The position numbers and the translations under genes were made by a program. This document shows, one piece after another, positions 1 to 37,314 of a DNA stretch of 39,685 nucleotides. The first letter of the stretch is position 1, and every line of letters begins with the position of its first letter. The notes below the pieces were generated by a model. That model worked only from the letters and a program-made list of their open reading frames with translations. It made no database searches and was not told the DNA's origin. Source of the DNA: an uncultured Bacteroidales bacterium (GTDB lineage Bacteria > Bacteroidota > Bacteroidia > Bacteroidales > UBA4417); contig CAIXAQ010000601.1 of assembly GCA_903917425.1 (NCBI GenBank), positions 1 through 39,685 on the forward strand, in the 5' to 3' direction.

Positions 1-1062
1 GGCAATAGCAGTCAGGTTTACGGCTGGTACATCGGCGGCACAGGACACCGTGACGTCCAGGCTTCCTGCCGGGGTGGTGATGGTTGGGGCGATATTGTCC
101 CCAACATTAATAATTTGAATGCAGGTTGTAGGGTTGCCAACCGGAACATACGTTGATGCATCTTTCAGAGTCCAGGTGCGGGTTATGACAACAGGACAAT
201 TTCCGGAGGCCACATCTTTGTATTGTACAGTTTTTATTTCACAATTATCAGTTGCCACACCTTGGTTAGTGGCATCAGAGAATGCGGCATAGGATGAAAG
301 AGTCAGAGCCGTATTATAGGCTGGGTCAGTGATTGCAGAGGTGGTGCATCCCTCAATATTCCGGGTTACAGCACAAGTGCTTATTATTGGAGGCGTGATA
401 TCCTTTATCTTTATTTTGGTCTGTCCACCCCCAAAATTGCCTGAAAGATCCGTCACCAGCACGGAGACAATAATATTCCCCAAGGCAATATCATTACAAC
501 TAAAAATATGAGACGCACTATAAACGTCGCCCAAAGGTAAATTCCTTTTAAATTCATAACTTGAGATGCCACAGTTATCACTTGCACTTAATATAAAATC
601 GGTTGCAAAAACTACCACCGTACCATCAGCACCTAAATTCTTTTCAATCTCCTTAAGATTTACCTTAGGCAATTCCATGTCTGCAATTTCAACATCAAAC
701 ACACAATCGGAAGTTCCACTTCCATCAACGGCTGTCCAGGTAACAGTAGTTATTCCCTTATTGAATGTTACTCCATCAAGAGTAACATTGGCAGGGGCAT
801 CAGGAATTACAGTTGCACCTGTGAGTGCATATGTTAAGGTTGCACCAGGCAAGGCAGCAATAGTAGGATCCCAGGGAGAGCCTCCTTCAAAAAATGTCCA
901 AAACGAGGCATTGTGTGTATATGTGCATTTGCCTACGTCGGTTCCGTTCGATGGCTTTTGATTATCAGGGCAATACGTAAATACGGGTTGTCCTAAAACG
1001 GAAAACGAGCAAAGCAAAACCGCAAAAACAAGCCAAAGTATGTTAGGTGTAGATTTTTCCAT
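1..1062 (-). CDS. Secreted HYR/Ig-like repeat surface protein, N-terminal part (3' end lies beyond the window start)
   Basis: Absent from the ORF track because it is open at the window edge. I checked all 354 in-frame triplets from the ATG at 1062 down to position 1 and found no stop. The nearest upstream in-frame stop is at 1132-1134, with no alternative start between. The N-terminus MEKSTPNILWLVFAVLLCSFSVLGQ looks like a signal peptide. Motifs GITTVTWTAVDGSGTSDCVFDVEI and VITRTWTLKDAS...CIQIINVGDNIAPTIT resemble HYR/SprB-type repeats of Bacteroidota adhesins. Confidence 0.7.
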   Translation of the reverse strand, partial: MEKSTPNILWLVFAVLLCSFSVLGQPVFTYCPDNQKPSNGTDVGKCTYTHNASFWTFFEGGSPWDPTIAALPGATLTYALTGATVIPDAPANVTLDGVTFNKGITTVTWTAVDGSGTSDCVFDVEIADMELPKVNLKEIEKNLGADGTVVVFATDFILSASDNCGISSYEFKRNLPLGDVYSASHIFSCNDIALGNIIVSVLVTDLSGNFGGGQTKIKIKDITPPIISTCAVTRNIEGCTTSAITDPAYNTALTLSSYAAFSDATNQGVATDNCEIKTVQYKDVASGNCPVVITRTWTLKDASTYVPVGNPTTCIQIINVGDNIAPTITTPAGSLDVTVSCAADVPAVNLTAIA

Positions 1063-1350
1063 GGAAGTTGAGTTTAAACTTACCTGAAATATTGTAAGAA
1101 CGTTTCTGAATAAGGAGAAATAGATTTGAAATTAGCCTATTAAATATCAATAAAGTACTAAGCAGTTGATTACTAGTTAAAATAGTATATGAGCCGTATA
1201 AAGGTACGAAATAAACATATGATAAGTTCAACAATTTCGCTATTTTTTCTCTCCGACACAATATAATTAATTTTATTTTTTTGCACATTATTGATCTTCA
1301 AAGCAATATAAACTATTTCTTTTTAAGCCTCTTTGCATTTATTCGATATA

Positions 1351-1390
1351 ACCTATCCTTTTCCTCTCTCACCTATCCTTTTCTTCTCTC
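1351..1390. repeat. 20-bp tandem duplication (acctatccttttcctctctc / acctatccttttcttctctc)
   Basis: Two adjacent 20-mers, read directly, differ at one position. They are pyrimidine-rich on the + strand. Confidence 0.8.
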
Positions 1391-1544
1391 TTGAAACACT
1401 TTTTTCTTGCTTTATGTTTTCTTAGTTTATGTATTATCTTTCTAAAAGTAACTTTACGTGCTGCTGAAATAAAAGCTTATCAAGCGAAACAAAATAATTA
1501 AGTGTTTTTCCTGCTGACGGGAGTGTTAAAGAGAACGACTCAAC

Positions 1545-1587
1545 AAACTCTTGATTTCGTTTGTTCAGCCGAAGAACGATTTAATCT
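1545..1587. repeat. Copy A of a 43-nt dispersed direct repeat in the ORF-free region
   Basis: aaactcttgatttcgtttgttcagccgaagaacgatttaatct aligns without gaps to 1986-2028, matching 36 of 43 positions by hand count. Confidence 0.75.
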
Positions 1588-1888
1588 TTTTTTTTAAGTT
1601 ATATTTTATGAAGCTTTTTCAGAATATCCTGCAAATAAATTTTCAACAACTTACTTTCCGGATTTAAAAAAAAATTGGCTCTTGATGGTCTTCAAATCAA
1701 TCTCTTAAGACTTCCAACAAAATTCACACAAATTTGAATAAACAATTATTGGGCCAGTCACATTCCAAACAACCAAAGCTAAGAATTCTCTATTTTTTTA
1801 ATTATTTAATCATAAGCTATTGTATATCTACCATATGTATATACAATTTCAATTAATTAAAAAAAATAGAAAAACCCTTAATCATTCT

Positions 1889-1902
1889 ACGGAAATTTCC
1901 GT
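1889..1902. promoter_or_regulatory. Perfect 14-bp palindrome ACGGAAATTTCCGT (candidate dimeric regulator site)
   Basis: The sequence equals its own reverse complement. It lies in the ORF-free region between the two 43-nt repeat copies. Confidence 0.3.
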
Positions 1903-1985
1903 ATCCGTCCCCTTTTGGGAATTTATTGTCCCGAAATCACACCACACCTCCACTTTTCCTGACTTCGACAACGCATCATCCTGAT

Positions 1986-2028
1986 AAACTCGCGATTTCA
2001 CTTGTTCAGGCAAAGAACGATTTAGTCT
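1986..2028. repeat. Copy B of the 43-nt dispersed direct repeat
   Basis: aaactcgcgatttcacttgttcaggcaaagaacgatttagtct. It is followed at 2030-2067 by an 8-bp stem hairpin (ttggttcg ... cgaaccaa). Confidence 0.75.
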
Positions 2029-3315
2029 ATTGGTTCGGGTTTTATTATTCATTGAAACGCGAACCAACTTATCTATTTATTAAGACAACTTTGTTTTAAG
2101 ATTCAGTCGATAACTTCAACGAGATTTGATGATCCGATTGTTTTACTATTGACAAGGTTTTGACTTCAAAATTATATTTGATTGATGAATGCCGTGCTTT
2201 ACGCATTGAGGGACGGTTTCCTCGTTGAGAAAAAGAAAAGACAATGCAAATAGTAAGCCAACAAAAGACTATTTATACAAATAGGCTTTGCAAGGAATGT
2301 AACTCACTCAATTTGAGTACCTAAGAAAATATAAATTATTTTTCATTAGATTGATCTTGGGGTAAGAAGATAAAAACAAGTTAAGATAATGAGTTAGAAA
2401 GAGTAAAAAACTGAACACGTGTGCGAAAAAGCGAACATTTATATTTAATGTTCTTTGGCTGATTACTTAATCAAACAGTATGATTCTTCAAATAAGTTAT
2501 AAAATGACAATTACACCTGACTCTCTGCATTAGCAACCTGACTGCTCAGGTGCTTCGTTTAATTCACGCTTACTATCAGTTGCTTAAGCAAAATTACCGA
2601 TATTAATTGCCTGTAATCAACTGTAATTTTATTTTTTTATTAACAAACGCATGTTCATAAACAAAACAGGCACACGCTCTTATTGTGTTCTGAATCAGGT
2701 TTATAAAAATTACGACCTCTAATTTGTCGCCAAAAGCGAAAATCATACAACTTTTTTTCTTTATTGTTCGCTTCAATCCTTTAATCGAATTCTTCTGTTT
2801 ATAAAAACCTTTAACGCCTTTCGGATGCCAATATGCAGAATCTATCTGAGGCTATTTGCCTTTTTAAACAATGATTTCCATTGAATATTTCGTCAAAAAA
2901 CAATGAATTATCAATTGACGAATTAAAAGCTGAAGTAGTTTTTCAACTTATCAAATCTACAAACCGGATGTTTATTCCAGATCAGGCATCTTGAGTCCTA
3001 TTATTTCTACCTTTATACTTTCAAACATAAACAAGTATAGTTTATTCTGAGAAACCATTTAACTTCACTAAAACACACAAAATTGTGCCTGATTTGTATT
3101 ACAATTCCTTAAAACATCCATCAATTAGTGTTGCCCCTTAGTTAGGATTTAAACGATGGCGACAACAACAATTGCATAATCACCTAATATAGAATACATT
3201 AAAAAATTTAACGAAATTTTGTGCCTCCAGGATTCCAACAGGAATACATGCGTGGGCGTCAGAAACAAAAAGCAGCTATCCAACAAACAAATACAGTTCA
3301 AAAAAAACCTTACTT

Positions 3316-3705
3316 ATGAAGCCTAAAATTCTGGTAATTGATGATGAAAGAAGTATCCGGATCCTTTTGGAGAGTTTCCTGTTACGAAGCGGCTATGAAG
3401 TTGAAAGCAGGGATGATGGTGAGAAAGCCTTCGAATGGCTTGAAACCAATCTGCCTGATCTGATCATTTGCGATGTTCAGATGAAAAATATGGATGGGTA
3501 TACTTTTGTACAAAAATTGCGCGAACGCGGACATACCAAAAATACCCCTGTGGTAATGCTTTCGGGCGTTGAAGGGAGCAAGGAACGCGTGAAATGTTAC
3601 AAACTGGGCGCTCAGGATTTTTTGGTAAAACCATTTAACCCTGACGAACTACACGAAATAATCAAAAAGAATCTTAATCCTATTCATTATGCTATAAAAT
3701 GGTAG
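3316..3705 (+). CDS. Single-domain CheY-like response regulator (receiver only), paralog 1
   Basis: 129 aa. Canonical receiver residues are present: DD (VIDDERS), phospho-acceptor Asp53 in LIICDVQMKNMDG, Ser in VVMLSG and Lys in LVKPF. There is no output domain. Confidence 0.9.
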   Translation: MKPKILVIDDERSIRILLESFLLRSGYEVESRDDGEKAFEWLETNLPDLIICDVQMKNMDGYTFVQKLRERGHTKNTPVVMLSGVEGSKERVKCYKLGAQDFLVKPFNPDELHEIIKKNLNPIHYAIKW

Positions 3706-3757
3706 CCATTCAGCCACTTAATATTTTAATCTGCAATGGTTTATACTTGTTATCAAT

Positions 3758-4936
3758 ATGGAAAATGCACTTAGGATAGTTTATATCGGCAATTCGCCCG
3801 AAGCAATCAGCACATTGCGGGCGGAGAAGCGAATTTCGCTCACTGTGCAGGCAAATGTGCTTGCAGCCGAAAATTACCTCAAATCGGGACAGATACCGGA
3901 TGCTATTTTCTGCGAAATGACAATTTCGGGTGGAGATGGACTTGCAATGCACGAATGGATTCGCAAAAAATACGACTTGGCTGGTGTTGCTTTTATCCTT
4001 TTTGACCAGGGGTTTGATGCAGAATTATATAAAAAAGCAATCAAAATTCGTGTCGACGATTTTTACACCTTCCCCTTACCACCCCTGCAAGGTCTACTCG
4101 ACAGACTCGTATTTTTGAAAGAATACCGTCAAAAATTAAAACCTATTGAACCCGAACTCAACCGTGAAATTGCTTACTCCATGCCGGTAACGAAACGTGT
4201 TTTCGATCTATTTGCGGCATCTGCCGGACTAATAGTACTGTCGCCTCTGCTGCTGATTGTCACGATTGCAATCAAACTCGAATCAAAGGGCAAAGTTATG
4301 CATGTCACAAAACGGATAGGCACAGGCGGGAAAATATTTGATTACCTGAAATTTCGCTCCATGCGCGAAGGGGTTGAGCCTACCATCTCTGAAATGCCAG
4401 CGCAAAAAAGCCAATTCACTTACGGATCTCAAAATTCGGACATAGATTTTGAAAAACCTTGCCCGAAATGCAGCCAGTTAAGATCAAATATTACCTGTTC
4501 GCCGCTCATTCATATTGGGACAGAGTCAATTTGCGAGTATTGGTATTCGGTACAAAAGAATGAAATAAACCATACAAAATCCACATCCGGTAAAAATGAA
4601 AGCCCGCGGATGACCAAAGTCGGTAAGTTTATCCGCAACACAGGTATCGACAGGCTACCGCAATTAATCAATGTGTTAAAAGGCGATATGTCAATTGTAG
4701 GCAACCGGCCCTTGCGCTTGTACGAGGCGGAACAGTTAACCAAGGGAGATATGTCGCGGCGTTTCCTTGCACCAGCAGGCATGACAGGGCTTTGGCAGGT
4801 TGAAGATCGCCAGAGAATGCGAGATATTTCTGAACTTGAACGCAAAAGTTTGGATGTTGCTTATTCCGATCATTTTATAGGCAACAATTACTCTTTTTGG
4901 TACGATTTCGGGATCCTTTTACGGCGTTTTCGGTAA
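3758..4936 (+). CDS. Phosphoglycosyl (bacterial sugar) transferase with N-terminal pseudo-receiver domain, paralog 1
   Basis: 392 aa. Residues 1-125 look receiver-like but carry GN instead of DD and CE in place of the phospho-Asp (DAIFCEMTISGGDG). The C-terminal part has Bac_transf motifs: KRVFD, a re-entrant helix LSPLLLIVTIAIKLES, KFRSM, KVGKFIRNTGIDRLPQLINVLKGDMSIVGNRP and PAGMTGLWQV. A roughly 80-aa insertion carries C-x2-C-x8-C-x11-C. Confidence 0.85.
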   Translation: MENALRIVYIGNSPEAISTLRAEKRISLTVQANVLAAENYLKSGQIPDAIFCEMTISGGDGLAMHEWIRKKYDLAGVAFILFDQGFDAELYKKAIKIRVDDFYTFPLPPLQGLLDRLVFLKEYRQKLKPIEPELNREIAYSMPVTKRVFDLFAASAGLIVLSPLLLIVTIAIKLESKGKVMHVTKRIGTGGKIFDYLKFRSMREGVEPTISEMPAQKSQFTYGSQNSDIDFEKPCPKCSQLRSNITCSPLIHIGTESICEYWYSVQKNEINHTKSTSGKNESPRMTKVGKFIRNTGIDRLPQLINVLKGDMSIVGNRPLRLYEAEQLTKGDMSRRFLAPAGMTGLWQVEDRQRMRDISELERKSLDVAYSDHFIGNNYSFWYDFGILLRRFR

Positions 4937-5271
4937 ATTGGCGTAATATCACCAAGTCATACAGCTTTAATGTTTATATTTACTCTTTTCAATTTCAAAT
5001 GTCCCGTAATCGCTAAACCTCTGATTTTCATTCGATATCTAAATAATAATCGCTAAAACGTATTACAAATATCTCTCATGTAAATCAATTATCAAAAGCA
5101 AATGTTTAAATCAGTATTGCATAACTATTGTTGTGATGTGGATGATTTAAACCGGGCAGCGGGTAGGGGCAAAAAACAAGTGACTTTTCGAACCGAGTCA
5201 GATTTCGGAATAGATTCACAATCAGAAGGAAATTTTAAAATAGATTCAATAACATATAAAAAACAAAATCG

Positions 5272-5664
5272 ATGGGTAAGAGTAGAATTCTGGCTATTGA
5301 CGATGAAAGAAGCATCCGGCTCCTTTTAGAAAGTTTCCTGTCAAAAAAACACGATATAGTTACTAAAAGCGATGGTTTAGAAGCACTCGACTGGCTCGAA
5401 GTCAATTTACCACCCGATCTCATCATATGCGACCTCCAGATGGCGAAAATGGATGGATTCGAGTTTGTTAAAAAGCTGCGTGAACGCGGATATACAAAGC
5501 ATACCCCCGTTATTATGCTATCAGGAGTTGAAAGCACCAAGGCGCGCATCGATTGTTATAAAAACGGTGCACAGGATTTTTTAACCAAACCTTTTAATCC
5601 CGAAGAATTGGAGGAAATTATCAATAAAAATCTGAATCCCGTACATTTTGCAAAAAAATGGTAA
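5272..5664 (+). CDS. Single-domain CheY-like response regulator (receiver only), paralog 2
   Basis: 130 aa, roughly two-thirds identical by eye to the 3316-3705 product. It has DD, Asp54 in LIICDLQMAKMDG, MLSG and TKPF, and the same C-terminal ...KW ending. Confidence 0.9.
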   Translation: MGKSRILAIDDERSIRLLLESFLSKKHDIVTKSDGLEALDWLEVNLPPDLIICDLQMAKMDGFEFVKKLRERGYTKHTPVIMLSGVESTKARIDCYKNGAQDFLTKPFNPEELEEIINKNLNPVHFAKKW

Positions 5665-5729
5665 TCAGCCAGCTATTTGATTAAACAATTCGTCACAAAT
5701 TCCAGTACAATTCGTTCACCAATCATATT

Positions 5730-6980
5730 ATGGAAAACGCACTTAAAATAGTTTATATCGGCAATTCTTCCGAAACTATTTCAGCATTGACAGCCAATGA
5801 TGGAATTTCCTTAGAACTTACAAGCAATATTCTTGCTGCGCAGAAACGCCTCACATCAGCCCCAGTCCCTGATGCAATACTCTGCGAAGTAAGCTTTTCG
5901 GGAGGAGAAGGAATAAAGTTATTTGATTGGGTTAGACAGCAATCCTCCTTAAACCCTGTTAGCTTTATACTACTGGCCTTTGAGTTTAAAGAAGATTTGA
6001 TAAAGGAAGCTTTAATAAAGCAGATCGACGATTTTTATGTGATTCCTCTACCTTCTTCTGAAAAAATAATTGGACGGTTAAATTATCTCAAAAATTACCG
6101 GTCGAAACCCGTCCCTATTGACATAAAACCAGATACATTACCTCCAACTCCAAGGTCAAAACGTATTTTTGATATAGTAATGGCCACAGTTGCTCTAATT
6201 GCACTTTCGCCCTTATTACTTATTGTTATTATGGCAATCAAACTTGAATCGAAAGGTAAGTTTTACTACATTTCGAGACGTGTTGGCCGCAAACCTTTCG
6301 ATTTTTACAAGTTGCGTTCCATGCGATCCGGTTCTGATGCTGATCTTAAAGAACTGGCAAAAGCCAAAAATCAATATGCAGTTGCAAGTTTACGAACAGA
6401 GATAGACTTCAGCAAACCATGCCAGGAATGCGCTAAATTGCCAGCCGGGGAAACCTGTTCTCCACTGAGGTATATTGGAGATCAATCTATTTGTGAAAGG
6501 AACTACAAACTCCAGGATATGGAAATAAGCAAGTCCACATTTAACAAAATTGTTGACGACCCGAGGATTACCCGAGTAGGAAGATTTATCCGCAATACCA
6601 GTATTGATGAACTGCCACAACTCATTAACGTGATAAAAGGAGATATGTCAATTGTAGGCAACCGTCCGTTACCGGTTTATGAGGCCGAGAAACTCACAAT
6701 TGGCGGAAAACCTATCGCCAGCGATGGCAAACCAAATATTGACGATATTATACAAAAAGCCAGGTTAGATAACCCAAAAAGGTTTTTAGCCCCAGCAGGC
6801 ATTACAGGGCTTTGGCAGGTTGAACTTCGCGGAAAAGGAGGTGATATGTCGGAAGACGAACGGAAAAAACTTGATATCGACTATTCAGATCACTTTATCG
6901 GTGATGCCTATTCCTTTAAGTACGATTTATGGCTGATCCTCCGCACTTTTAAAGCCCTTTTTCAGAAAGATACTGTATAA
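5730..6980 (+). CDS. Phosphoglycosyl (bacterial sugar) transferase with N-terminal pseudo-receiver domain, paralog 2
   Basis: 416 aa with the same architecture as 3758-4936. It shares the MENAL.IVYIGNS start, CE at the phospho-acceptor position, KRIFD, KLRSM, RVGRFIRNTSIDELPQLINVIKGDMSIVGNRP and PAGITGLWQV. It has the same 4-Cys spacing, plus an extra insert of about 22 aa (GGKPIASDGKPNIDDIIQKARLDN). Confidence 0.85.
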   Translation: MENALKIVYIGNSSETISALTANDGISLELTSNILAAQKRLTSAPVPDAILCEVSFSGGEGIKLFDWVRQQSSLNPVSFILLAFEFKEDLIKEALIKQIDDFYVIPLPSSEKIIGRLNYLKNYRSKPVPIDIKPDTLPPTPRSKRIFDIVMATVALIALSPLLLIVIMAIKLESKGKFYYISRRVGRKPFDFYKLRSMRSGSDADLKELAKAKNQYAVASLRTEIDFSKPCQECAKLPAGETCSPLRYIGDQSICERNYKLQDMEISKSTFNKIVDDPRITRVGRFIRNTSIDELPQLINVIKGDMSIVGNRPLPVYEAEKLTIGGKPIASDGKPNIDDIIQKARLDNPKRFLAPAGITGLWQVELRGKGGDMSEDERKKLDIDYSDHFIGDAYSFKYDLWLILRTFKALFQKDTV

Positions 6981-7007
6981 GCTCAAAAATTCTGTAAATT
7001 TGCAGGT

Positions 7008-7784
7008 ATGATGAGAAGTATAGCGACTCTTTCCCTTCTTGTTTTTTTCCTCTTATGGTTCCCTGAGATAGTTAGTAGCCAGGCGGTTACGGCATTTGAT
7101 CCTATAAAAGAGGATATAAGCAACAAACTGCCCCCTTTGGCTGCGCTAATGGATTCGGCCATTGCAAATAATCCGTATATACGGTTCCGGGACCTGCAGA
7201 TTATAGTGAATAACTGCAAGCTCAAATCCAACGAGGTAGATTGGACGCGAAATATTGGTTTTTCGGCCGATGTGAGATATGGCAATTTTTATAATTATTC
7301 GCAAAATACAGTTGGCGGAATTGAACCACCTGCCGTTGCTACCAATCGTGCCGAAACAAAATGGGGCGGGGCAATTTATTTCAAATTTCCAGTTTACGAT
7401 CTGATTAACAGGAAAAACCAGCTTAAAATGGCCGGCATTGAAGTTGAACAGGCTGAAAATATGGCCGAAGTTCAGCGTAACGAAGTAAGGCAATTGGTTA
7501 TCCGCCAATACAACGAACTTGTTCTGAAACAGCGTTTGCTCAGGGTTAAATCAAAGTTTTTTGAAACTTCGAAAGCGAGTATGATGCTGGTTGAAAAAGA
7601 GTTTATAAATGGAGTAATCCCTTTGACTGAATATACCCGTCTGTCAGAAGCCGCCAACCGCACCGAATCCGATTATGAAGTGACGAGGATGGATTTTCTG
7701 ACAGCATATTTAATACTGGAGGAGATTACCGGAATGGATTTCCACTTAACTAACGAAATATCTGGCTCCAATGAAGGTAATTGA
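7008..7784 (+). CDS. TolC-like outer-membrane protein, short form with one OEP-type repeat
   Basis: 258 aa with a signal peptide (MMRSIATLSLLVFFLLWFPEIVSSQ). A helix / beta-hairpin / long heptad-like helix pattern (LMDSAIANNPYIRF..., AEVQRNEVRQLVIRQYNELV..., PLTEYTRLSEAANRTESDY) resembles half of a TolC/OprM-family protein. It overlaps the next gene by 14 nt. Confidence 0.55.
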   Translation: MMRSIATLSLLVFFLLWFPEIVSSQAVTAFDPIKEDISNKLPPLAALMDSAIANNPYIRFRDLQIIVNNCKLKSNEVDWTRNIGFSADVRYGNFYNYSQNTVGGIEPPAVATNRAETKWGGAIYFKFPVYDLINRKNQLKMAGIEVEQAENMAEVQRNEVRQLVIRQYNELVLKQRLLRVKSKFFETSKASMMLVEKEFINGVIPLTEYTRLSEAANRTESDYEVTRMDFLTAYLILEEITGMDFHLTNEISGSNEGN

Positions 7785-10494
7785 GATTCTGCGCCTGGTT
7801 AAGAAAAATCTGGTAATATTAATTTTTACTCCTGTTATACTATCCGCCCTGGTTTGGTACCTTACCCGCGTCCCGGTATATTCCTATTCATCCGAAACAA
7901 CTCTTTACACTGGGATTGCATCAGGATCGAGTGTTGAAATGGATAAAACTCTGAGCTTTTTTGCAACCAATACCGCATTCGATAACCTGATCAACGTTAT
8001 CAAATCGCGTGAAACCCAGCAGGAAGTTGCAATCCGGCTATTAGCGCAACATCTGATGCTGCCTAAATACGATACGCGCTATATTTCGAAGGATGCGTAT
8101 AACAAGTTGCAGAAAACCACACCTGCATATGTCAAGTCCCTGATTGTTAATTCGCATGGATCACACAGGGTTCAGTATAATAAAAAGCAAGCGGCAACAC
8201 CACAACCCATTTCCCCAAAGCCGCCGGCAAACTACAAACAAAACCAGACACATATAGTAAAAAGCAAGGAAACCCTTTTTTCTATTTCTCAACTGTACGG
8301 TTTAACAGTGGAAGAAATTACTGAAATGAACGAACTCAACGGGAACAATCTTGAGGTTGGGCAGGAACTTATTGTTGGTAAAATTTTTACTGCCAATACA
8401 GAAAACTCATCAGCTGATACAATTGTTGCATCGGAAAGCGACAGCATCTCTTCATTTTCTTTTTCGGATCTTAATTCATCGGATAACTCCATCACAATCC
8501 CGTCCTCCGTGAACCGGGAAGATTTTGAGGAAACTGTTAAAAACCTGGAAGTCTATATGGGCCGCAGTGATACAAATTATGTATATAAATTGCTGTATTT
8601 CAGTCATCCTCACTATTCAATCAAAGCTATTTCATCCGTAAATGTGCAGCGTATCGCGAGCAGCGACCTTGTAAAACTTAAATTCGATGCCGACGAACCC
8701 GGTATTTGCCAGCAGACCCTGGCATTGCTGACCGAGGTGTGCATTAAAAACTATAAGGCCATTAAGGAAAACCGATCAGATGCTGTTGTCAGATATTTTG
8801 AGTTCCAGCTCAAACAAGCTTCCGGCAGGTTGAAAGTGGGAGAAGATAAATTATTGAGTTTCAATGAAGACAATAACATTATTAACTACTACGAACAAAG
8901 TAAGGCCGTTGCCGTGGTAAAGGAAGACCTGGATGTAGACTATAACAACAAGCGAATAAAGTTAGCAGGAACAAAAGCTGCCATAAACCGGATTGAGGAA
9001 AAGTTAGGTACACAAAAACAAATACAACTTAAGAGTTCGGACATAATTGAAAAACGCAACCAGCTTAGCGATGTAAATACAAAAATTGCCGATGCTGAAA
9101 TTGTTGGTTTTGGCAAAACCCTTGACGATAAAGACTTGGTGGCGCTAAAGCAAACTTCCGAAAAACTGAAAGAGGAAATCAGCAACTCAGTAAACGAATT
9201 GTACAGCTATGGTAACACTACCAGCGGTCTCCCGATTAATTCGTTACTCACCGATTGGATTGCGAACGTAATTGAATATGAAGATACGAAGGCTGGCATT
9301 GAAGTACTTGGAGACCGTATCAGGGAATTTCAGAAACAATATGCCATTTATGCGCCTGCAGGGGCGAATCTGAAACGTATCGAACGCGAAATTTCAGTTT
9401 CGGAACAGGAATTTCTTGAAATTTTACATGGATTAAATCTGGCAAAATTAAAAATGCAGGATGCCGAATTATCTTCATCTATTAAAGCGGTCGATCCTCC
9501 ATTCTTCCCTTTATCCCCAAACCCTACCAAAACGAAAATTTTAATTCTTGTTGCCGGCCTGGTTGGTTTTCTAATAGTATTGATCAGCATCCTGGCAACC
9601 GAATATTTTGACGACACGCTTAAAAACCCTGAAAAGGCATCAAAAATCCTTAAGTTACAAACTATAGGCGTTTTTCCAAAAATTTTCCTCAACACCGGTT
9701 CAATCAATTTTCCCTTCGTCACGAACCGTTTGCTGGAAATGACACTGCAGCAGATTGACATGCTTACTGTAAATAAAAAAGACCCGAACGAACCACGGAC
9801 ATTGCTGTTTATGAGTTCCCTGAGTTCGGAAGGGAAAACTGTCAGTGCAGGAAACATTGCCTGGAAACTCAAAAAACAAGGCAAAAACGTTTTATTTCTT
9901 AACTTCTCCCGGGAATCGCTCCGCCAAACCGAAACCAGCCAGATAGGATATCCTGCTGACTCAAAACCAGTGCAGTCGGTAAGAAACATTTCAGAAGGAA
10001 GGTTCCAGTTTATCAGCCGTATGCTCGGCTATGGCGACAACAGGATTAATACCGCCAGCCCTTTTCTTCAAAAACCTGATAACTATCTCGATAATCTGGA
10101 GTATTTCGTTTACCAGGTAAACCACGACTACTTTTCGGCAGGCAACTATACGGATTTACTCGACCGGCAGTATATGTCATTATTGGATAAGCCTGATTAT
10201 GTGATAATCGAACTTCCTCCATTCCTGTATTATTCATACCCGATAAACCTGGTGGCTTCTGCGGATCTGGCAATTATACAATGCAGGGCAAACAGGGTCT
10301 GGACTGGGTCGGATCAGGGTGTATTGGATATATTGAAAAAAGTTACTTTGCACGAACCCGTGGTGCTGCTGAATGGCGTGGAGATACCCGTGTTGGAAAT
10401 TGTGTTGGGCGACTTGCCTAAAAAACGCAGCAAGTTACGGCGAATAGCTAAAAGTATTATTCGTATGCAGGCAGGTTCAAAACATAATGTTTAG
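7771..10494 (+). CDS. Wzc/GumC-like polysaccharide co-polymerase with a periplasmic LysM domain and a degenerate C-terminal P-loop (BY-kinase-like) domain
   Basis: 907 aa. TM1 spans about aa 14-32. A LysM-like segment covers aa 161-204 (HIVKSKETLFSISQLYGLTVEEITEMNELNGNNLEVGQELIVGK). Long coiled-coil region follows, then a proline-rich VDPPFFPLSPNP motif and TM2 (aa 588-610). The C-terminal domain keeps SSEGKT (Walker A-like), but the Walker A' position reads LFLNFS, Walker B reads VIIELPP, and there is no Tyr-rich tail. Confidence 0.85.
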   Translation: MKVIEILRLVKKNLVILIFTPVILSALVWYLTRVPVYSYSSETTLYTGIASGSSVEMDKTLSFFATNTAFDNLINVIKSRETQQEVAIRLLAQHLMLPKYDTRYISKDAYNKLQKTTPAYVKSLIVNSHGSHRVQYNKKQAATPQPISPKPPANYKQNQTHIVKSKETLFSISQLYGLTVEEITEMNELNGNNLEVGQELIVGKIFTANTENSSADTIVASESDSISSFSFSDLNSSDNSITIPSSVNREDFEETVKNLEVYMGRSDTNYVYKLLYFSHPHYSIKAISSVNVQRIASSDLVKLKFDADEPGICQQTLALLTEVCIKNYKAIKENRSDAVVRYFEFQLKQASGRLKVGEDKLLSFNEDNNIINYYEQSKAVAVVKEDLDVDYNNKRIKLAGTKAAINRIEEKLGTQKQIQLKSSDIIEKRNQLSDVNTKIADAEIVGFGKTLDDKDLVALKQTSEKLKEEISNSVNELYSYGNTTSGLPINSLLTDWIANVIEYEDTKAGIEVLGDRIREFQKQYAIYAPAGANLKRIEREISVSEQEFLEILHGLNLAKLKMQDAELSSSIKAVDPPFFPLSPNPTKTKILILVAGLVGFLIVLISILATEYFDDTLKNPEKASKILKLQTIGVFPKIFLNTGSINFPFVTNRLLEMTLQQIDMLTVNKKDPNEPRTLLFMSSLSSEGKTVSAGNIAWKLKKQGKNVLFLNFSRESLRQTETSQIGYPADSKPVQSVRNISEGRFQFISRMLGYGDNRINTASPFLQKPDNYLDNLEYFVYQVNHDYFSAGNYTDLLDRQYMSLLDKPDYVIIELPPFLYYSYPINLVASADLAIIQCRANRVWTGSDQGVLDILKKVTLHEPVVLLNGVEIPVLEIVLGDLPKKRSKLRRIAKSIIRMQAGSKHNV

Positions 10495-10502
10495 ATACTG
10501 GT

Positions 10503-11846
10503 ATGAAAAAAGCCCTTGGTAAAATAACCCGTGAAGCTAACTTCCTTTCGTTGGCAGGAAACCTCACGATTGCTTTTTTTGGCTTCGCAGGTTTTGCATT
10601 ATTGGCTCGTACTTTTCCTGTCGATATTTTTGGTCAGTGGGTTTTGTATATTTCTTCGGGTACTTTTATCGAAATGTTTCGTTTCGGGATTACCAATACA
10701 GCCATTATCCGCTACCTATCGGGTGTGGACAAAGACGACAGGATGAAATATGTGGGTTCGAACGGCCTGATCGGGCTTATAGCCACAACTTTTATAGCTA
10801 TTATTCTTTGGTCGTGCCACCTGCTATTCCCAATACCGATTAAAAATGCCGGGTACGAACTTTTTTTTACCTGGTATCCCCTGCTGGCTTTTGTAAATCT
10901 TCCGCTCAATACAGCCCTTGTGATTATGCAGGCTGATCAGAAGTTCGGAAAAATCCTGATGGTTAAATCAATTAACAGCGGAGGATTTTTCCTTGTGCTT
11001 TTACTCAACTACCTGTTTCTTGACATGTCGCTCATGCAATTGGTTTGGGCACAGTTAATAATAGTCCTGATAACTTCGGTAATCTGTGTGGCCAATGGCT
11101 GGGATGGATTGAGACATATCCGCAAAGCGACAAAGCGCACCAACAAAGTTCTGCTCGATTTTGGAAAATACACCACTTTCACCCTGATAGGCACTAACCT
11201 GCTACGAAGTGCCGATACGCTCATTATCAGCCTTAGCCCTATGGGGACAGCAGCTGTAGCTTTATACAGCATTCCTATGAAATTAACTGAGCTACAGCAA
11301 ATTCCGCTCCGGAGTTTTGTGGCAACCGCATTCCCTAAAATGTCGAAGGCAAGCATACAAGGCAAGATTGAAGAGGTGAAATCTATTTTTTATTCCTATT
11401 CGGGGGCCATGTCGTACCTGTTCATTTTCATCAGTCTTTTCACCCTGGTGTTTGCCGAGTTCTTTGTTTTGGTTTTAGGTGGCAAACAATACGTACATAC
11501 CGAGGCCGTGATGATTGTCCGCATATTTTCATTGTACGGATTGCTGCTCCCCATCGACCGAATGACGGGCGTCGGGCTCGACAGCATTAACAAACCCGAC
11601 AGGAATTTTATTAAAGTAATGATCATGGTTGTTGCCAATGTAATCGGCGACCTGATTGCGATTTTTGTCTTCAAATCATTGCCTATGGTTGCAGTAGCTT
11701 CCATACTTTTTACGGCCATAGGAATTTGGGTAGGATTTCGATTTTTAAACAGCGAACTTCACCTTTCACATAGGCTGGTTTTTACGGCAGGAATAGATTT
11801 CTATAAGGAAATGTATTATAAATTCAAGAAAAACTTACGTCGGTAA
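10503..11846 (+). CDS. Wzx-like oligosaccharide flippase (MOP/polysaccharide biosynthesis protein family)
   Basis: 447 aa. It is multi-spanning and hydrophobic throughout, with the size and topology typical of Wzx, and sits between the co-polymerase and the polymerase. Confidence 0.8.
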   Translation: MKKALGKITREANFLSLAGNLTIAFFGFAGFALLARTFPVDIFGQWVLYISSGTFIEMFRFGITNTAIIRYLSGVDKDDRMKYVGSNGLIGLIATTFIAIILWSCHLLFPIPIKNAGYELFFTWYPLLAFVNLPLNTALVIMQADQKFGKILMVKSINSGGFFLVLLLNYLFLDMSLMQLVWAQLIIVLITSVICVANGWDGLRHIRKATKRTNKVLLDFGKYTTFTLIGTNLLRSADTLIISLSPMGTAAVALYSIPMKLTELQQIPLRSFVATAFPKMSKASIQGKIEEVKSIFYSYSGAMSYLFIFISLFTLVFAEFFVLVLGGKQYVHTEAVMIVRIFSLYGLLLPIDRMTGVGLDSINKPDRNFIKVMIMVVANVIGDLIAIFVFKSLPMVAVASILFTAIGIWVGFRFLNSELHLSHRLVFTAGIDFYKEMYYKFKKNLRR

Positions 11847-11891: not shown

Positions 11892-13397
11892 ATGCTCAAT
11901 AAGTCAAATCCGTTCGAAACAGTTTCAGGCTCAGGTAAGTTGGGTACACCCAAGTACGTTGCCTTGCTTCTTGGCGTAACTGTAATTTCAGGATTACTTA
12001 TTGGTAAATCGGGGCTCATAGCAGGGATTGGCCTTGTGTTTCTTCCTTTCATCCTTATTTATTTCAATTATTTCTTCCGGTTTCCTGAAATTGGTTTATA
12101 CACAGCCATCGGTCTCGGATTCCTGATTTTAGGCCTGGGACGGTATATTAAAGGATTGCAGTTGGGCATGGCCATGGATGGCATCTTGTTTTTGACCTAT
12201 ATCGTATTAATATTCAATCGTTTCCGCGACAGGGTTGACTGGTCGCCAGCCAAAAAAGATGTTACCCTGTTGGCAGCCATCTGGTTTGCCTATTCCATTA
12301 TTGAAGTTGCCAATCCCGAGTCGCGCAGTGTGCCTGCATGGCTGGCCGGCATGCGTGGTATATCGTTGTATATGATGTTGATGATCCCGTTAACATTGCT
12401 CTTTTTTAATACCAACCGCAAAGTAGATACTTTTCTCACGCTTTGGGGCGTATTCTCATTACTTGCAACCTTTAAAGGCATTCTGCAAAATACAATAGGG
12501 GTCGATCCCTGGGAAAAAGCCTGGCTTGATGGAGGAGGTGCAATTACTCATATCCTATTCGGCAAACTCCGGATTTTTTCATTTTTCAGCGATGCAGGCC
12601 AGTTTGGTGCTAATCAGGGATATACAGGGGTCGTATTTATAATTATTTCGCTGGTTGAGAAAAGCAAACCCAGGAAAATATTTTTACTCCTCGTTGGGAT
12701 ATTAGGACTATACGGAATGTTACTTTCGGGTACGCGTGGCTCTATTAGTGTGCCTTTAGCCGGGTTTGCTCTCTATTTCATTCTCAAGAAGAATAAAACC
12801 GTCATGATTTCAGGATTTTTCATGATGATGTTAGTATTTGCATTTTTTAAATTCACGCTCATTGGCCAGGATAATCAACAGATACGCCGTATGCGTTCGG
12901 CTTTCGACCCTAACGACGCATCGCTCCAGGTAAGACTCGAGAACCAAAAGAAACTAAAAGTTTACCTGGCCACACGTCCTATGGGAGGCGGAATTGGCCA
13001 TGCTGGGGTTAAGGCGGCAAAATACCTTCCAAATGCCTATCTTTCGTCGGTTGCCACCGATAGCTGGTATGTCCTCATTTGGGCCGAGCAAGGAATCATC
13101 GGGTTGAGTCTGCATCTTTTTATCCTGTTTTATATTCTCATTAAGGCCTCGTACCTAATCATGTTCAGGATTCGCGACCCGATAGTTAAGATAAAAATGG
13201 CTGCTTTGGCATCAGGTATGTTTGGCGTAATGGTTGCGTCCTATGGAAATGCCGTTTTGGGCACTATGCCGACCGGTATGCTGATTTATGTATCAATGGC
13301 ATTGATGCTCAATTCCGATGTACTCGATGCCGATGCCCTGGCAAATCAGGAATTGGCTTCCGCTTCAATACCAGTAAATGCAGGCAAACCCAGTTGA
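11892..13397 (+). CDS. Wzy-like polymerase / O-antigen ligase family membrane protein
   Basis: 501 aa polytopic membrane protein. The central SGTRGS motif and following loop are typical of the O-antigen ligase (Wzy_C) family. Confidence 0.8.
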   Translation: MLNKSNPFETVSGSGKLGTPKYVALLLGVTVISGLLIGKSGLIAGIGLVFLPFILIYFNYFFRFPEIGLYTAIGLGFLILGLGRYIKGLQLGMAMDGILFLTYIVLIFNRFRDRVDWSPAKKDVTLLAAIWFAYSIIEVANPESRSVPAWLAGMRGISLYMMLMIPLTLLFFNTNRKVDTFLTLWGVFSLLATFKGILQNTIGVDPWEKAWLDGGGAITHILFGKLRIFSFFSDAGQFGANQGYTGVVFIIISLVEKSKPRKIFLLLVGILGLYGMLLSGTRGSISVPLAGFALYFILKKNKTVMISGFFMMMLVFAFFKFTLIGQDNQQIRRMRSAFDPNDASLQVRLENQKKLKVYLATRPMGGGIGHAGVKAAKYLPNAYLSSVATDSWYVLIWAEQGIIGLSLHLFILFYILIKASYLIMFRIRDPIVKIKMAALASGMFGVMVASYGNAVLGTMPTGMLIYVSMALMLNSDVLDADALANQELASASIPVNAGKPS

Positions 13398-13778: not shown

Positions 13779-16700
13779 ATGACCATACGTAATAGGATTC
13801 TTCTTTTGTTTTCAGCAATTATTATACTTGTAGGAGCAGTGTTATTATTGTTTTTCAAATCGCAGAAAAAGCAAAATGATCTGATGCTCCTTTCCTCTGT
13901 CGGGCAACAGGTTGAATTGGTGAACACGGCTATCAATGTAAAATCCAGTCAGTTAAAACAAATACTTGATGACTACACCATTTGGGACGACTTGATTTAT
14001 AACATAAAAAAACCGGACCAAAACTGGGCAGTAAGTAATATTGGCACCAGTCTCGAATCCTTTAAACTGGGATCGGTTTCGGTTTACAACCTCAACAAAC
14101 AACTCGTGTATAATTTCGGCGATAAACCGGAAGACTTTTTTGCCGATGCAACCCAAAAGGACAGAGTGCTGAGCTATGTGCTGCAAAACGGGTTTATACA
14201 TTACTTTTATCATTCGCCGGCCGGCATAATTGAGATAGTTGCTTCAACCATTCATCCTACGCTCGACGTCACTCATTCCACTCCGGCCAACGGTGTATTT
14301 GTTATAAGCAAAAGCTGGGATAGCACATTCATACAGGATCTTTCCAGAAATACGTCCTGCAACATCAGCATTTGCCATATTCAAAAAAGTGAAACTTCGT
14401 TCCGCATGGAAAACGATTCACTTATTGTATACAAACCACTTTTGGATGAAGCCGCGAACGAAACTATAGTACTGGCTTTCGAGAAATCAAATACAGCTTT
14501 ATCGAATTTCAATCGCACCAATCGTTTCGTATTTATTTTTCTTTGTATTTTTCTTACCATTGTTGTTTTAAGTTTCTTTCTTGTATTGTACAAATGGGTG
14601 CGCAAACCACTGATCATCATATCCGAAAGCTTACGCGACGGAGATGATTCCCAATTAAATATCCTCGAAAGGAACAAAGATGAATTCAGCCAGGTAGCGC
14701 ACCTGATCCGGGTTTTCAACCAACAGAAGATAGAACTTGAACAAGAAAACACTGAACGCCGTCTTGGCGAATCACAATTGCTTCGGCAAAGCAACATGCT
14801 CAGGGGATTAACCGAAGCTTCCAACCAGTTGCTGACAGGTGAAAACCCTGACACATCAATAAGCAAAGCACTTAAAGTAATCGGGGAGATTTCACAGATC
14901 GACCGGATTTTTGTTTTCAAAAACGAATCCGATAAAACAACCGGCATCCGCAAGGTAAAGAGTGTTTACCAGTGGATTGCACCCGAAATATCCGATAAAA
15001 TAAATCCCGCTGAAGCAGAAGAATTTATTTATCACCACGACGAAAATGCCTGGTATGCCAACTTACTCAGGCACAAACCAATAAACGCCCAAACTTCCGG
15101 ATTTACAGGTAATATGAAGGTGGTCCTTGAAAGGCAAATGATCAGGTCCTTCCTCGTTGTCCCGATCATTGATATTGAAGATGAGTCGTTTTGGGGGCTG
15201 GTAGGCTTTGCCGATTGCAAAACCGAACATCATTGGACGGCAAGCGAGGAAAGCACACTGAATATGTTGGCCAACAATGTGCGCAATTCAATACGCCGTT
15301 TCGAAGCCCAGGAAAACCTCCTGGAAGCCATGAAACGGGCACAAGCCGCCGACAGGGCAAAATCGGAGTTTCTGGCTTCGATGAGCCACGAAATACGAAC
15401 CCCCATGAACGGTGTTTTTGGTATGACCAGCATACTGCTGCATACCGACCTCACCCCTCTACAACGTGAATATATTGAGATAATAGAAACATCCGGCGAT
15501 AATTTATTAAATATTATTAACGAAATTCTCGATTTCTCCAAGATAGAATCGGGACATATGGAATTGGAAAACAATGCCTTCGATATCAGGCGCTGCATCG
15601 AGGACGTACTCGACTTATCCGCACCCAAAGCACTCGAGAAACGCCTCGAAATCATGTATCTTATTGATCCTGATGTGAGTAGATTTATTATTGGCGACGG
15701 ATTCCGTTTACGACAGATATTGGTAAACCTGATCGGCAATTCAATCAAATTTACGCAGAGTGGTGAAATTTATATACATTTAGGGGTAGCAAACAAAACC
15801 GGAGAGAGTGTAACACTCGAGTTTTCAATTAAAGACACCGGTATCGGAATACCTCAAAATAAATTAGCTACCATTTTTACGCCTTTTACCCAGGCGGATG
15901 CCACCACAACCCGTAAATACGGAGGTACAGGGCTGGGCCTGGCCATTACCAGCAACCTGATAAAACTAATGAAGGGAAAAATTTGGGTCGAAAGTATTGA
16001 AGGACAAGGATCTGATTTCCGGTTTACGATTAAAACACAATACACAACCGCGCTCAATGAAGCAGACTCCGAAGACAATTCTTTGAAAACATTACCCGGT
16101 AAAAGTGTACTTATTGTTGACGATAATCCAACCAACCGAAAAATATTGCAGATTCAGTGCGAATTCTGGGGGATGAAAAGCGTTACTGCCGAATCGGGTA
16201 AAACGGCACTTGAATTGTTGAGTGCGGGCAACACATTCGACATTGGCATTTTAGACATGCAGATGCCGGAAATGGATGGCATTATGCTCGCCCGTGAGAT
16301 GCGGAAAACCTTAAACAAGAGTGTTTTGCCTTTAATAATGCTAACTTCAATAGGCTACAATTTTCAAAAAGATGAAATGCACAACCTGTTTGCTTATTAT
16401 GTGAACAAACCTATAAAACACTCGCAGTTGTCCGAAATCCTGTCGAAAGCCCTATCGCCAGCCCCATTAAATACATCCAATTCACTTTCAGCCGATTCGG
16501 ATTTGGGATATCTTGCCAAAAAATATCCGTTCGAGATACTGGTTGCTGAAGATAATGTTATAAACCAAAAGATGATCAAGAATGTGTTGAAACTTTTCGG
16601 CTATACGGCCGATATCGTTGCAAATGGTCTGGAGGTGATAGAAGCGTTGAAAAGACAGCGTTACGAGTTGATATTGATGGATATCCAAATGCCCGAAATG

Positions 16701-16922
16701 GATGGTTATGAAGCAACCAGAATCATAGTGAATCATTTGAAAGAAGAAAGGCCTATTATAATTGCTATGACAGCAAATGCCATGAAGAGCGATAAGGATA
16801 AATGCATGGAAGTAGGTATGGATGATTATATTACAAAACCTCTTAAAGTTGCAGATTTAAAAAACGTATTCGAATACTGGGGCGAAAAACACAAGTCAAA
16901 CACTGTCGTGAGTGGCCGGTAA
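13779..16922 (+). CDS. Hybrid sensor histidine kinase (CHASE4-like periplasmic domain, TM, coiled coil, GAF, HisKA, HATPase_c, two receiver domains)
   Basis: 1047 aa. TM1 is LLLFSAIIILVGAVLLLFF. A DDYTIWDDLIY motif is CHASE4-like. TM2 is FVFIFLCIFLTIVVLSFFLVLY. The H-box is FLASMSHEIRTPMNGV (His537, codon 15387-15389). N and G boxes are present (NLIGNSIKFT, DTGIGI, GGTGLGLAI). REC1 acceptor Asp826 is in ILDMQMPEMDG and REC2 acceptor Asp968 is in LMDIQMPEMDG. No Hpt domain is present. Confidence 0.92.
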   Translation: MTIRNRILLLFSAIIILVGAVLLLFFKSQKKQNDLMLLSSVGQQVELVNTAINVKSSQLKQILDDYTIWDDLIYNIKKPDQNWAVSNIGTSLESFKLGSVSVYNLNKQLVYNFGDKPEDFFADATQKDRVLSYVLQNGFIHYFYHSPAGIIEIVASTIHPTLDVTHSTPANGVFVISKSWDSTFIQDLSRNTSCNISICHIQKSETSFRMENDSLIVYKPLLDEAANETIVLAFEKSNTALSNFNRTNRFVFIFLCIFLTIVVLSFFLVLYKWVRKPLIIISESLRDGDDSQLNILERNKDEFSQVAHLIRVFNQQKIELEQENTERRLGESQLLRQSNMLRGLTEASNQLLTGENPDTSISKALKVIGEISQIDRIFVFKNESDKTTGIRKVKSVYQWIAPEISDKINPAEAEEFIYHHDENAWYANLLRHKPINAQTSGFTGNMKVVLERQMIRSFLVVPIIDIEDESFWGLVGFADCKTEHHWTASEESTLNMLANNVRNSIRRFEAQENLLEAMKRAQAADRAKSEFLASMSHEIRTPMNGVFGMTSILLHTDLTPLQREYIEIIETSGDNLLNIINEILDFSKIESGHMELENNAFDIRRCIEDVLDLSAPKALEKRLEIMYLIDPDVSRFIIGDGFRLRQILVNLIGNSIKFTQSGEIYIHLGVANKTGESVTLEFSIKDTGIGIPQNKLATIFTPFTQADATTTRKYGGTGLGLAITSNLIKLMKGKIWVESIEGQGSDFRFTIKTQYTTALNEADSEDNSLKTLPGKSVLIVDDNPTNRKILQIQCEFWGMKSVTAESGKTALELLSAGNTFDIGILDMQMPEMDGIMLAREMRKTLNKSVLPLIMLTSIGYNFQKDEMHNLFAYYVNKPIKHSQLSEILSKALSPAPLNTSNSLSADSDLGYLAKKYPFEILVAEDNVINQKMIKNVLKLFGYTADIVANGLEVIEALKRQRYELILMDIQMPEMDGYEATRIIVNHLKEERPIIIAMTANAMKSDKDKCMEVGMDDYITKPLKVADLKNVFEYWGEKHKSNTVVSGR

Positions 16923-26711: not shown

Positions 26712-26743
26712 AGGTGAACAACCAGGTTTTGCAGCAAAAAAGC

Positions 26744-35740: not shown

Positions 35741-35768
35741 GTAATAATAAATTTTAAACTGATAAATC

Positions 35769-36071: not shown

Positions 36072-36152
36072 GAATCCTCTCTACCCGGCAATAACATGCC
36101 ACGGTGTGGACCGACATGCATGGGTTCAATTTAATCAATAACTGGAATCACA

Positions 36153-36443: not shown

Positions 36444-36452
36444 AAACTGGCC

Positions 36453-36740: not shown

Positions 36741-36750
36741 GGAGGTTCGA

Positions 36751-37305: not shown

Positions 37306-37314
37306 GCGAACATA

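Follow-up and report, generated by a model that had tools for sequence, protein, structure and literature searches.

Introduction

A priming phosphoglycosyl transferase (PGT) commits scarce undecaprenyl phosphate (Und-P) to one polysaccharide, and the mechanisms that gate this step are largely unexplored beyond the myxobacterial EpsW/EpsZ system. In Myxococcus xanthus, the response regulator (RR) EpsW, once phosphorylated, binds EpsZ, the priming PGT, and directly activates it (Schwabe et al. 2025, PMC12802240). The Anabaena protein All4160, a STAS-Bac_transf protein, is regulated by a partner-switch-like kinase/phosphatase (PMC13555669), and fusions of a receiver to a small monotopic PGT (monoPGT) have been noted bioinformatically in a sequence similarity network survey (O'Toole, Imperiali and Allen 2021, as cited in PMC12802240). 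We analyse here a stretch of 39,685 nucleotides from an uncultured Bacteroidales bacterium (contig CAIXAQ010000601.1 of assembly GCA_903917425.1), the whole of which we call the window, where two consecutive gene pairs each combine a receiver-only RR with a PGT that carries a predicted pseudo-receiver at its N terminus. The initial annotation of this DNA held that direct two-component control of an initiating transferase had no characterised example, a statement that EpsW/EpsZ has made outdated.

In PleD, a phosphorylatable receiver (Rec1) works with a degenerate receiver adaptor (Rec2) to switch an enzyme domain. Pseudo-receivers have the receiver fold without the phosphotransfer residues, and the review that defines them gives BldM/WhiI as a receiver:pseudo-receiver heterodimer and CmrR/CmrT as a proposed heterodimer (PMC12632262). 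For the locus described here we lean, with a little better than even confidence, towards a reading in which a cassette of an RR and a pseudo-receiver-PGT heads a Wzx/Wzy-type exopolysaccharide (EPS) locus, the phosphorylated RR (RR~P) directly switches priming, and the upstream of the two transferases, PGT1, is non-catalytic.

Two pairs of a response regulator and a priming transferase

The two pairs, their domains and their key residues are as follows.

3316-3705, + strand: RR1, single-domain response regulator, receiver only, 129 amino acids (PF00072, E 1.4e-32); phospho-chemistry residues D9-D10, D53, S83 and K105, from the sequence and its alignment with the N-terminal domains
3758-4936, + strand: PGT1, whole open reading frame (ORF), 392 amino acids (PF02397, E 4.7e-47)
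3758-4132, + strand: predicted N-terminal pseudo-receiver of PGT1, amino acids 1-125 (weak PF00072 match, AlphaFold2, Foldseek, alignment)
4184-4936, + strand: re-entrant helix and Bac_transf domain of PGT1, dyad disrupted (D298-R299, encoded at 4649-4654)
5272-5664, + strand: RR2, single-domain response regulator, receiver only, 130 amino acids (PF00072, E 2.2e-27); phospho-chemistry residues DD, D54, Ser and Lys, from alignment
5730-6980, + strand: PGT2, whole ORF, 416 amino acids (PF02397, E 1.8e-47)
5730-6104, + strand: predicted N-terminal pseudo-receiver of PGT2, amino acids 1-125 (weak PF00072 match, AlphaFold2, Foldseek, alignment)
6150-6980, + strand: re-entrant helix (S160-P161) and Bac_transf domain of PGT2, with an intact Asp293-Glu294 encoded at 6606-6611

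Both stand-alone regulators score far above the Response_reg (PF00072) cut-off of 30.2 bits (RR1 112.6 bits, RR2 95.8 bits) and share 67% identity. Across an alignment of 78 sequences, the RR family keeps the DD pair, the acceptor Asp, the Ser and the Lys, together with a 'KPFNPEEL' motif, and RR1 and RR2 are predicted to be canonical response regulator receivers that can be phosphorylated. The best sequence match of RR2 in the PDB is PleD Rec1.

The downstream genes exceed the Bac_transf (PF02397) cut-off of 27 bits to a similar extent (PGT1 160.3 bits, PGT2 161.6 bits), and Foldseek matches the C-terminal parts of both to PglC and WbaP (E 1e-9 to 1e-12). The Ser-Pro pair of the re-entrant helix is invariant in the family alignments (S160-P161 in PGT2, S162-P163 in PGT1), and the AlphaFold2 (AF2) models, built with alignments of 83 and 66 sequences, contain long helices (142-174 and 144-176) for which a re-entrant membrane topology is predicted. 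D293-E294 of PGT2 ('TSIDELPQLI') aligns to 'LDELPQL' of WbaP and PglC, and PGT2 is predicted to be a monotopic PGT with an intact Asp-Glu dyad. The initial annotation had described two tandem gene pairs of one architecture at these positions, the first gene of each being a receiver-only RR with all phospho-chemistry residues and the second a member of the monotopic PGT family; the ORFs, Pfam matches, paralogue identities, alignments and structural matches bear out this description.

The catalytic domains have further features of their own. Relative to WbaP and PglC, the Bac_transf domain contains an insertion of ~50 amino acids (PGT2 amino acids 231-255, encoded at 6420-6494; PGT1 amino acids 235-259) with four Cys (CxxC-8-C-11-C), for which the models show a small beta-hairpin. 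The four Cys occur together in 53 of the 83 family members and are jointly absent from the others, and the insertion may be a Zn-ribbon-like module. After the dyad, all 83 members read 'VGNRP' (N311 in PGT2) where WbaP and PglC have 'VGPRP', which appears from the alignment to be a family-specific change in a conserved motif close to the active site. PGT2 also has a low-confidence insertion of 23 amino acids, GGKPIASDGKPNIDDIIQKARLD, at positions 324-346 (6699-6767); it is shared with the proteins P0002, P0003, P0005 and P0006, and is found neither in the PGT2 orthologue of the related locus L084 nor in the remaining family.

A receiver fold without phosphotransfer residues

The N-terminal domain (N-domain) of each PGT gives a PF00072 match below the gathering score over amino acids ~20-102 (E 0.006 for PGT1 and 0.002 for PGT2). 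In the AF2 models, amino acids 1-125 of both proteins have a predicted local distance difference test score of ~90 or above (~90 in PGT1, >90 in PGT2), with elements in the order b1a1b2a2b3a3b4a4b5a5 (b, strand; a, helix). Foldseek against the PDB matches these domains to the receivers of PhoB, ArcA, KdpE, VicR and many other proteins at a template modelling (TM) score of ~0.8 and a root mean square deviation of ~2-2.6 Å over ~122 columns, the values for PGT2 against the PhoB receiver being 0.79-0.83 and 2.1-2.6 Å. When both N-domains are aligned with RR1, RR2 and the two receivers of the hybrid kinase described below, DD is replaced by GN (G11-N12 in PGT2) and the acceptor Asp by Glu (E53 in each, within FCEMT and LCEVS); the Ser/Thr and Lys are absent as well, their positions being occupied by D in PGT1 or A (A83 in PGT2), and by F or I (I105 in PGT2), respectively. 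Of the 83 family members, 64 have Gly and a single one has Asp at the first position of the acidic pocket, and the acceptor position is Glu in 34, Asp in 17 and Gln in 9. Because these acidic-pocket and acceptor residues are lost, the N-domain should be unable to catalyse phosphotransfer anywhere in the family, and we regard it as a predicted pseudo-receiver, with the receiver fold kept and the key phosphotransfer residues gone. The receiver-like domain of ~125 amino acids postulated earlier, with a lost acidic pocket and Glu at the acceptor position, thus holds up in models and alignment; of the two Pfam assignments that accompanied it, Bac_transf lies above threshold and Response_reg on the N-domains is sub-threshold only.

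Such a domain could also work without the RR. In the closer family, the residues that it conserves (E53, 'SGGDG', F86 and D100-D101) lie together on what was the active-site face, as might suit a sensor of a small ligand, for example c-di-GMP or a nucleotide, that feeds back on the PGT independently of the RR; the pseudo-receiver of ShkA binds c-di-GMP (PMC7010744) and an accessory domain of WbaP senses UMP (PMC10942596). However, the residues of this face are not conserved phylum-wide, no ligand-binding motif was identified in the domain, and the strict adjacency of the RR gene would be left unexplained. We consider a ligand sensor of this kind very unlikely.

A cassette conserved across the Bacteroidota

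Metagenomes of Bacteroidales and Marinilabiliales contain abundant homologues of ~400 amino acids that share this architecture. A species-level survey, for which one genome per species was scanned, returned 80 loci, and the cassette is found in the Flavobacteriia, Bacteroidia, Sphingobacteriia, Chitinophagia and Cytophagia. The loci come from Flavobacterium, Polaribacter, Lutibacter, Winogradskyella, Marinifilum, Roseimarinus and Draconibacterium, as well as from Pedobacter, Mucilaginibacter, Sediminibacterium, Chitinophagaceae, Cyclobacteriaceae, Saprospiraceae and Prevotella.

Upstream regulators were sought in the six-frame ORFs of these loci with the window proteins as queries, and in 76 of 81 loci an RR1/RR2-like protein of 120-135 amino acids is encoded immediately upstream of the PGT in the same orientation. 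The gap between the two genes has a median of 13 bp, some pairs overlap, and RR and PGT are probably co-translated neighbours. Of the five exceptions, two are due to contig ends (L015, L067) and one to a masked stretch (L018); another is a frameshifted PGT whose RR is present (L031), and the last is a short PGT with neither N-domain nor RR (L075). With all five accounted for, every evaluable PGT that has the N-domain has an RR, which lies directly upstream in 77 of 77 such loci. The co-conservation of the two genes, on which the initial annotation had made its proposal depend, is thus strong. The order RR-PGT-OEP-PCP-Wzx-Wzy (PCP, polysaccharide co-polymerase) is seen in most of the 81 loci, and RR and PGT stay adjacent also in loci with other downstream genes or none, such as those of Pedobacter and Mucilaginibacter.

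One Bacteroidales metagenome-assembled genome (L037) has a cassette RR that is split by an insertion of ~2.2 kb (7256-7519 and 9742-9888), and its downstream PGT is intact. To judge by its sequence, this locus would be a natural RR knockout with an intact PGT.

Phosphorelay genes and a candidate kinase

In nine loci (L005, L007, L011, L012, L014, L035, L040, L042 and L054), an ORF of 111-128 amino acids lies 0-13 bp upstream of the RR, and the four of these nine that were searched all match Hpt (PF01627, E 4e-10 to 2e-6). Hpt-like genes also occur ~5 kb upstream, on the opposite strand, in L001 and L084, which among relatives with long contigs are the closest. This Hpt adjacency supports a relay from a hybrid kinase through Hpt to the RR, for which the window offers one candidate kinase.

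13779-16922, + strand: hybrid histidine kinase, CHASE4-GAF-HisKA-HATPase-REC-REC (Pfam), candidate input

The same CHASE4 hybrid kinase follows Wzy in L001 and L084. On ERZ1426816, a third contig of the duplicated clade, a different gene follows Wzy and the kinase is absent from that position, and a histidine kinase-like gene lies within 10 kb of the cassette in only 18 of 83 loci. No Hpt domain is found in the kinase by Pfam, and no Hpt gene in the window by tblastn. Because the window has no Hpt gene, synteny extends only to close relatives and so few loci have a kinase nearby, the gene at 13779-16922 is a reasonable candidate for the input, not an established one; it had been put forward as the obvious input, and it is plausible but not obvious.

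Locus L084 has two adjacent Hpt-like genes on the minus strand, at 2803-3144 and 3357-3701. The His is retained in one of them ('AHYFKSS'); the other reads 'NLSSIRG' at the corresponding site and may, from its sequence, be a pseudo-Hpt. The duplication of these genes parallels that of the cassette.

An old duplication and a dyad-less paralogue

PGT1 and PGT2 are 50% identical, and the in-register identity of ~72% between the two DNA copies marks a genuine duplication of considerable age. We considered, and rejected, a recent duplication or gene conversion, given this DNA identity and the recovery of the clades across genomes. Neighbour-joining trees recover the PGT1 clade, which has a long stem, with bootstrap support of 100%; support is 100% for the RR1 clade as well and 92% for the PGT2 clade, while the RR2 pair is not resolved (26%). 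The PGT1 orthologues are P0121 (94% identity) and P0122-P0128 (65-68%). L084 (GCA_049317165.1), L085 and two ENA contigs also show the order RR-PGT1-RR-PGT2, and a second RR/PGT pair within 10 kb is found in none of the 80 species-level loci.

PGT1 reads 'TGIDRLPQLI', placing D298-R299 at the site of the Asp-Glu dyad, a detail that the initial annotation lacks. In all nine PGT1-type proteins 'IDELPQL' has changed to 'IDRLPQL' or 'IEKLPQL', with Asp itself replaced by Glu in three of the nine, and all nine lack the C-terminal 'KALFQKDTV' tail that is conserved elsewhere. Among the 83 family members, the Asp is present in 83 and the Glu in 82, the sole exception for Glu being PGT1 of the window. 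The dyad is described as common to all members of the superfamily (PMC10519829, PMC10942596, PMC10186338). Lacking it, PGT1 is named here as a PGT homologue and not classed as active, and it is probably a non-catalytic paralogue.

The ratio of nonsynonymous to synonymous substitution rates (dN/dS) against L085 is 0.035 for RR1, 0.235 for PGT1, 0.047 for RR2 and 0.046 for PGT2 over whole genes, that of PGT1 thus being ~5 times that of PGT2; for the catalytic domain the values are 0.234 in PGT1 and 0.018 in PGT2, a constraint ~13 times weaker. Compared with the L084 orthologues, RR1 is 85% and RR2 68% identical; PGT1 has 70% identity in the N-domain and 66% in the catalytic domain, and PGT2 shows the reverse, with 54% and 82%. 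Selection on PGT1 is relaxed yet purifying. From these ratios and identities, PGT1 is a maintained gene in which the signalling half is better kept than the enzymatic half. We reject the reading that PGT1 is a decaying pseudogene, in view of an ORF intact in nine orthologue clusters (65-94% identity) and of the dN/dS of 0.235.

It had been suggested that the two pairs form two paralogous channels. Both cassettes would then be fully active in parallel, PGT1 acting on a different sugar or by a modified mechanism, and the retention in PGT1 of Asp298, the fold, the re-entrant helix and most conserved motifs fits this, as does its purifying selection (dN/dS 0.235). Against it, the whole PGT1 clade has exchanged Glu for Arg or Lys, and three of nine members Asp for Glu, in a family where 82 of 83 members have the Glu and for a dyad described as universal (PMC10519829); the weaker constraint on the catalytic domain and the lost C-terminal tail point the same way. 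Two active channels are therefore doubtful, and we hold them to be quite unlikely. The role of PGT1 may instead be non-catalytic and regulatory, as an RR~P decoy, an integrator or a partner of PGT2.

A proposed mechanism

We propose that priming is switched in three steps. First, phosphate would be transferred from a hybrid kinase to a stand-alone Hpt protein and from there to the RR. Second, as the RR has no output domain, RR~P would bind the PGT directly, the likeliest mode being receiver to pseudo-receiver. Third, binding would allosterically switch Und-P priming at the post-translational level, as EpsW~P does for EpsZ in Myxococcus. After the old duplication in this lineage, the downstream RR2/PGT2 would be the working enzyme, and the upstream PGT1, its catalytic Glu lost, is probably non-catalytic and may have been retained as an RR~P-binding decoy, integrator or regulatory partner of PGT2. 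Domains, folds, the loss of phosphotransfer residues, the conserved pairing, the Hpt neighbours, the missing dyad and the regime of selection are observations; we infer the binding of RR to PGT, its interface, the sign of the regulation and the role of PGT1 as parts of this model.

Docking of a receiver on a pseudo-receiver is attractive because of BldM/WhiI and the proposed CmrR/CmrT heterodimer, because of the PleD Rec1 match of RR2, and because elements b5 and a5 of the N-domain retain the positions D101 and R116, which we take to resemble the dimer salt-bridge positions of OmpR/PhoB, a resemblance that serves as a lead and not as a test. It is possible, and we put this forward tentatively, that the Bacteroidota use a 'split' switch in which a phosphorelay-fed RR~P docks in trans on the pseudo-receiver, with the dead PGT and its own RR as decoy or subunit. 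If true, a split switch together with a dead PGT that has its own RR would create two-input logic at the priming step.

Several observations weigh against the proposal. The N-domain is weakly conserved across the phylum, with a mean top-residue fraction of 0.35 vs 0.69 in the catalytic domain, which could reflect relaxed constraint instead of co-evolution with a partner. Partial mirror-tree correlations are alike for the three pairs (0.46 for RR and N-domain given the catalytic domain, 0.33 for RR and catalytic domain given the N-domain, 0.45 for N-domain and catalytic domain given the RR). No natural RR-pseudo-receiver-PGT fusion was found among the matches inspected; proteins of ~260 amino acids that matched the N-domain in two stretches were set aside as ordinary REC-REC proteins. 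Since the RR of EpsZ contacts a different accessory domain and the catalytic domain, the interface here could be other than receiver to receiver. Finally, the relay lacks an Hpt gene in the window, and PGT1 keeps the nucleophilic Asp and may thus have residual or altered activity.

The weak conservation of the N-domain, and an RR-N-domain signal that does not rise above those of the other domain pairs, would also suit a reading in which RR and pseudo-receiver are not partners at all. The RR would then have another target, for example the LysM/PCP protein encoded downstream, Hpt, or the kinase as a phosphate sink, the N-domain would constitutively dimerise or scaffold, and adjacency would reflect co-expression alone. 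Single-domain RRs can serve as phosphate sinks, and PCP, OEP, Wzx and Wzy travel with the cassette as well. However, the RR is always the direct upstream neighbour of the PGT, at a median of 13 bp, whether the downstream genes differ or are absent; the sole family member without the N-domain (L075) is also without an RR; and EpsW/EpsZ provides a precedent for direct contact (PMC12802240). We therefore regard the absence of a partnership as unlikely, and prefer direct switching of the PGT by RR~P.

The surrounding locus

Downstream of the cassettes, export and polymerisation genes were assigned by Pfam and NCBIfam.

7008-7784, + strand: OEP-like protein
7771-10494, + strand: LysM/PCP protein with an AAA_31 region
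10503-11846, + strand: Wzx-like protein
11892-13397, + strand: Wzy

Other genes on the + strand around the cassettes encode nucleotide-sugar dehydratases, GT2 and GT4 transferases, an acetyltransferase and a methyltransferase, and the surroundings are, as predicted from this gene content, a Wzx/Wzy exopolysaccharide locus of a Bacteroidota organism. The export genes (7008-10494) are unusual: a half-size TolC/OEP-like protein of 258 amino acids stands where Wza would be expected, and the chain-length-determinant-like protein of 907 amino acids has a LysM domain and no more than a weak AAA_31 match. This OEP-like/LysM-PCP pair travels with the cassette in most loci.

Between RR1 and a minus-strand secreted repeat protein that runs off the left end of the window lie 2.26 kb of AT-rich DNA (1058-3315, GC content ~0.35-0.37) with no ORF of at least 82 amino acids. 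A comparable gap is present in the close relative L085; in L084 and L001, sugar-nucleotide and Hpt genes occupy this interval. Scanning the window, including 1058-3315, for Rfam families and tRNAs gave no matches. A scan of 2800-7200 for sigma-70 promoters and terminators gave nothing above shuffled sequences, and such a scan does not cover Bacteroidota promoters. Further downstream, the glycosyltransferase block ends with a right-handed beta-helix protein carrying a type IX secretion system C-terminal sorting domain (26714-28432, + strand), which may be a secreted enzyme that modifies or depolymerises polysaccharide. At 35117-38730, BMC-domain shell proteins (35117-35740, weak match; 36709-37305, strong match) and then an aldehyde dehydrogenase open a bacterial microcompartment locus, which is unrelated to the RR/PGT cassettes.

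Comparison with known systems

The cassette suggests a mechanism related to that of EpsW/EpsZ in a different architecture, one that is near-universal in one type of Bacteroidota Wzx/Wzy EPS locus and spans Flavobacterium, Polaribacter, Pedobacter, Mucilaginibacter, Prevotella and the Marinilabiliales. If the proposal is true, a large group of bacterial pseudo-receivers would gain a defined function, and the dyad-less paralogue would be a candidate natural pseudo-enzyme in the PGT superfamily. The partner pair, a soluble RR and a soluble domain of 125 amino acids, lends itself readily to tests. RR control of a priming PGT (EpsW/EpsZ), the receiver-monoPGT fusion and the regulation of a STAS-Bac_transf protein are already known, and no characterised Bacteroidota example was found in the literature searched. 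Within that literature, three things appear to be undescribed: the pseudo-receiver nature of the domain fused to the monoPGT, its obligatory pairing with an RR, often with Hpt as well, across the Bacteroidota, and a conserved dyad-less PGT paralogue with an RR of its own.

We compare the cassette with each of its closest counterparts. First of all, EpsW/EpsZ likewise places a single-domain RR without output domain beside the initiating monoPGT of a Wzx/Wzy EPS pathway, with co-occurrence across genomes, and by analogy the cassette may work in the same way. In EpsW/EpsZ the phosphorylated RR controls the PGT post-translationally by direct contact, whereas for the cassette such control is proposed. 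EpsZ is a large monoPGT with a bundle of four transmembrane helices and a PF13727 domain of unknown function that lacks the beta-hairpin. Neither a PF13727 match nor an N-terminal transmembrane bundle is found in the cassette PGTs by Pfam and AF2, a soluble receiver-like N terminus taking their place, and because both are missing the cassette is not a member of the EpsW/EpsZ family. The inputs differ too, a chemosensory CheA-type kinase for EpsW and an implied Hpt phosphorelay here, as do the phyla.

Second, the fusions in the 2021 survey, as PMC12802240 relays it, resemble the cassette PGTs in having a receiver-like domain on a minimal monoPGT core; as far as that account goes, the survey, which is bioinformatic, describes neither the degeneracy of the domain nor an obligatory stand-alone RR next to it, a link to Hpt or a dyad-less paralogue. 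Third, All4160 also carries an N-terminal signalling domain on a Bac_transf PGT, and this domain gates a polysaccharide pathway post-translationally. It is a STAS domain that is itself phosphorylated on Ser, whereas the domain fused to the cassette PGTs is predicted to be incapable of phosphorylation.

Finally, the proposed pairing of a receiver with a degenerate receiver has counterparts beyond the PGTs. PleD holds both receivers in one chain with a GGDEF cyclase as output; in the cassette, on the other hand, receiver and pseudo-receiver would cooperate in trans, with a membrane PGT as their target. BldM/WhiI and, by hypothesis, CmrR/CmrT, like the partnership proposed here, match a pseudo-receiver with a receiver protein, and the CmrRST genes share an operon. 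Their outputs are transcription factors, whereas the output of the cassette would be an enzyme.

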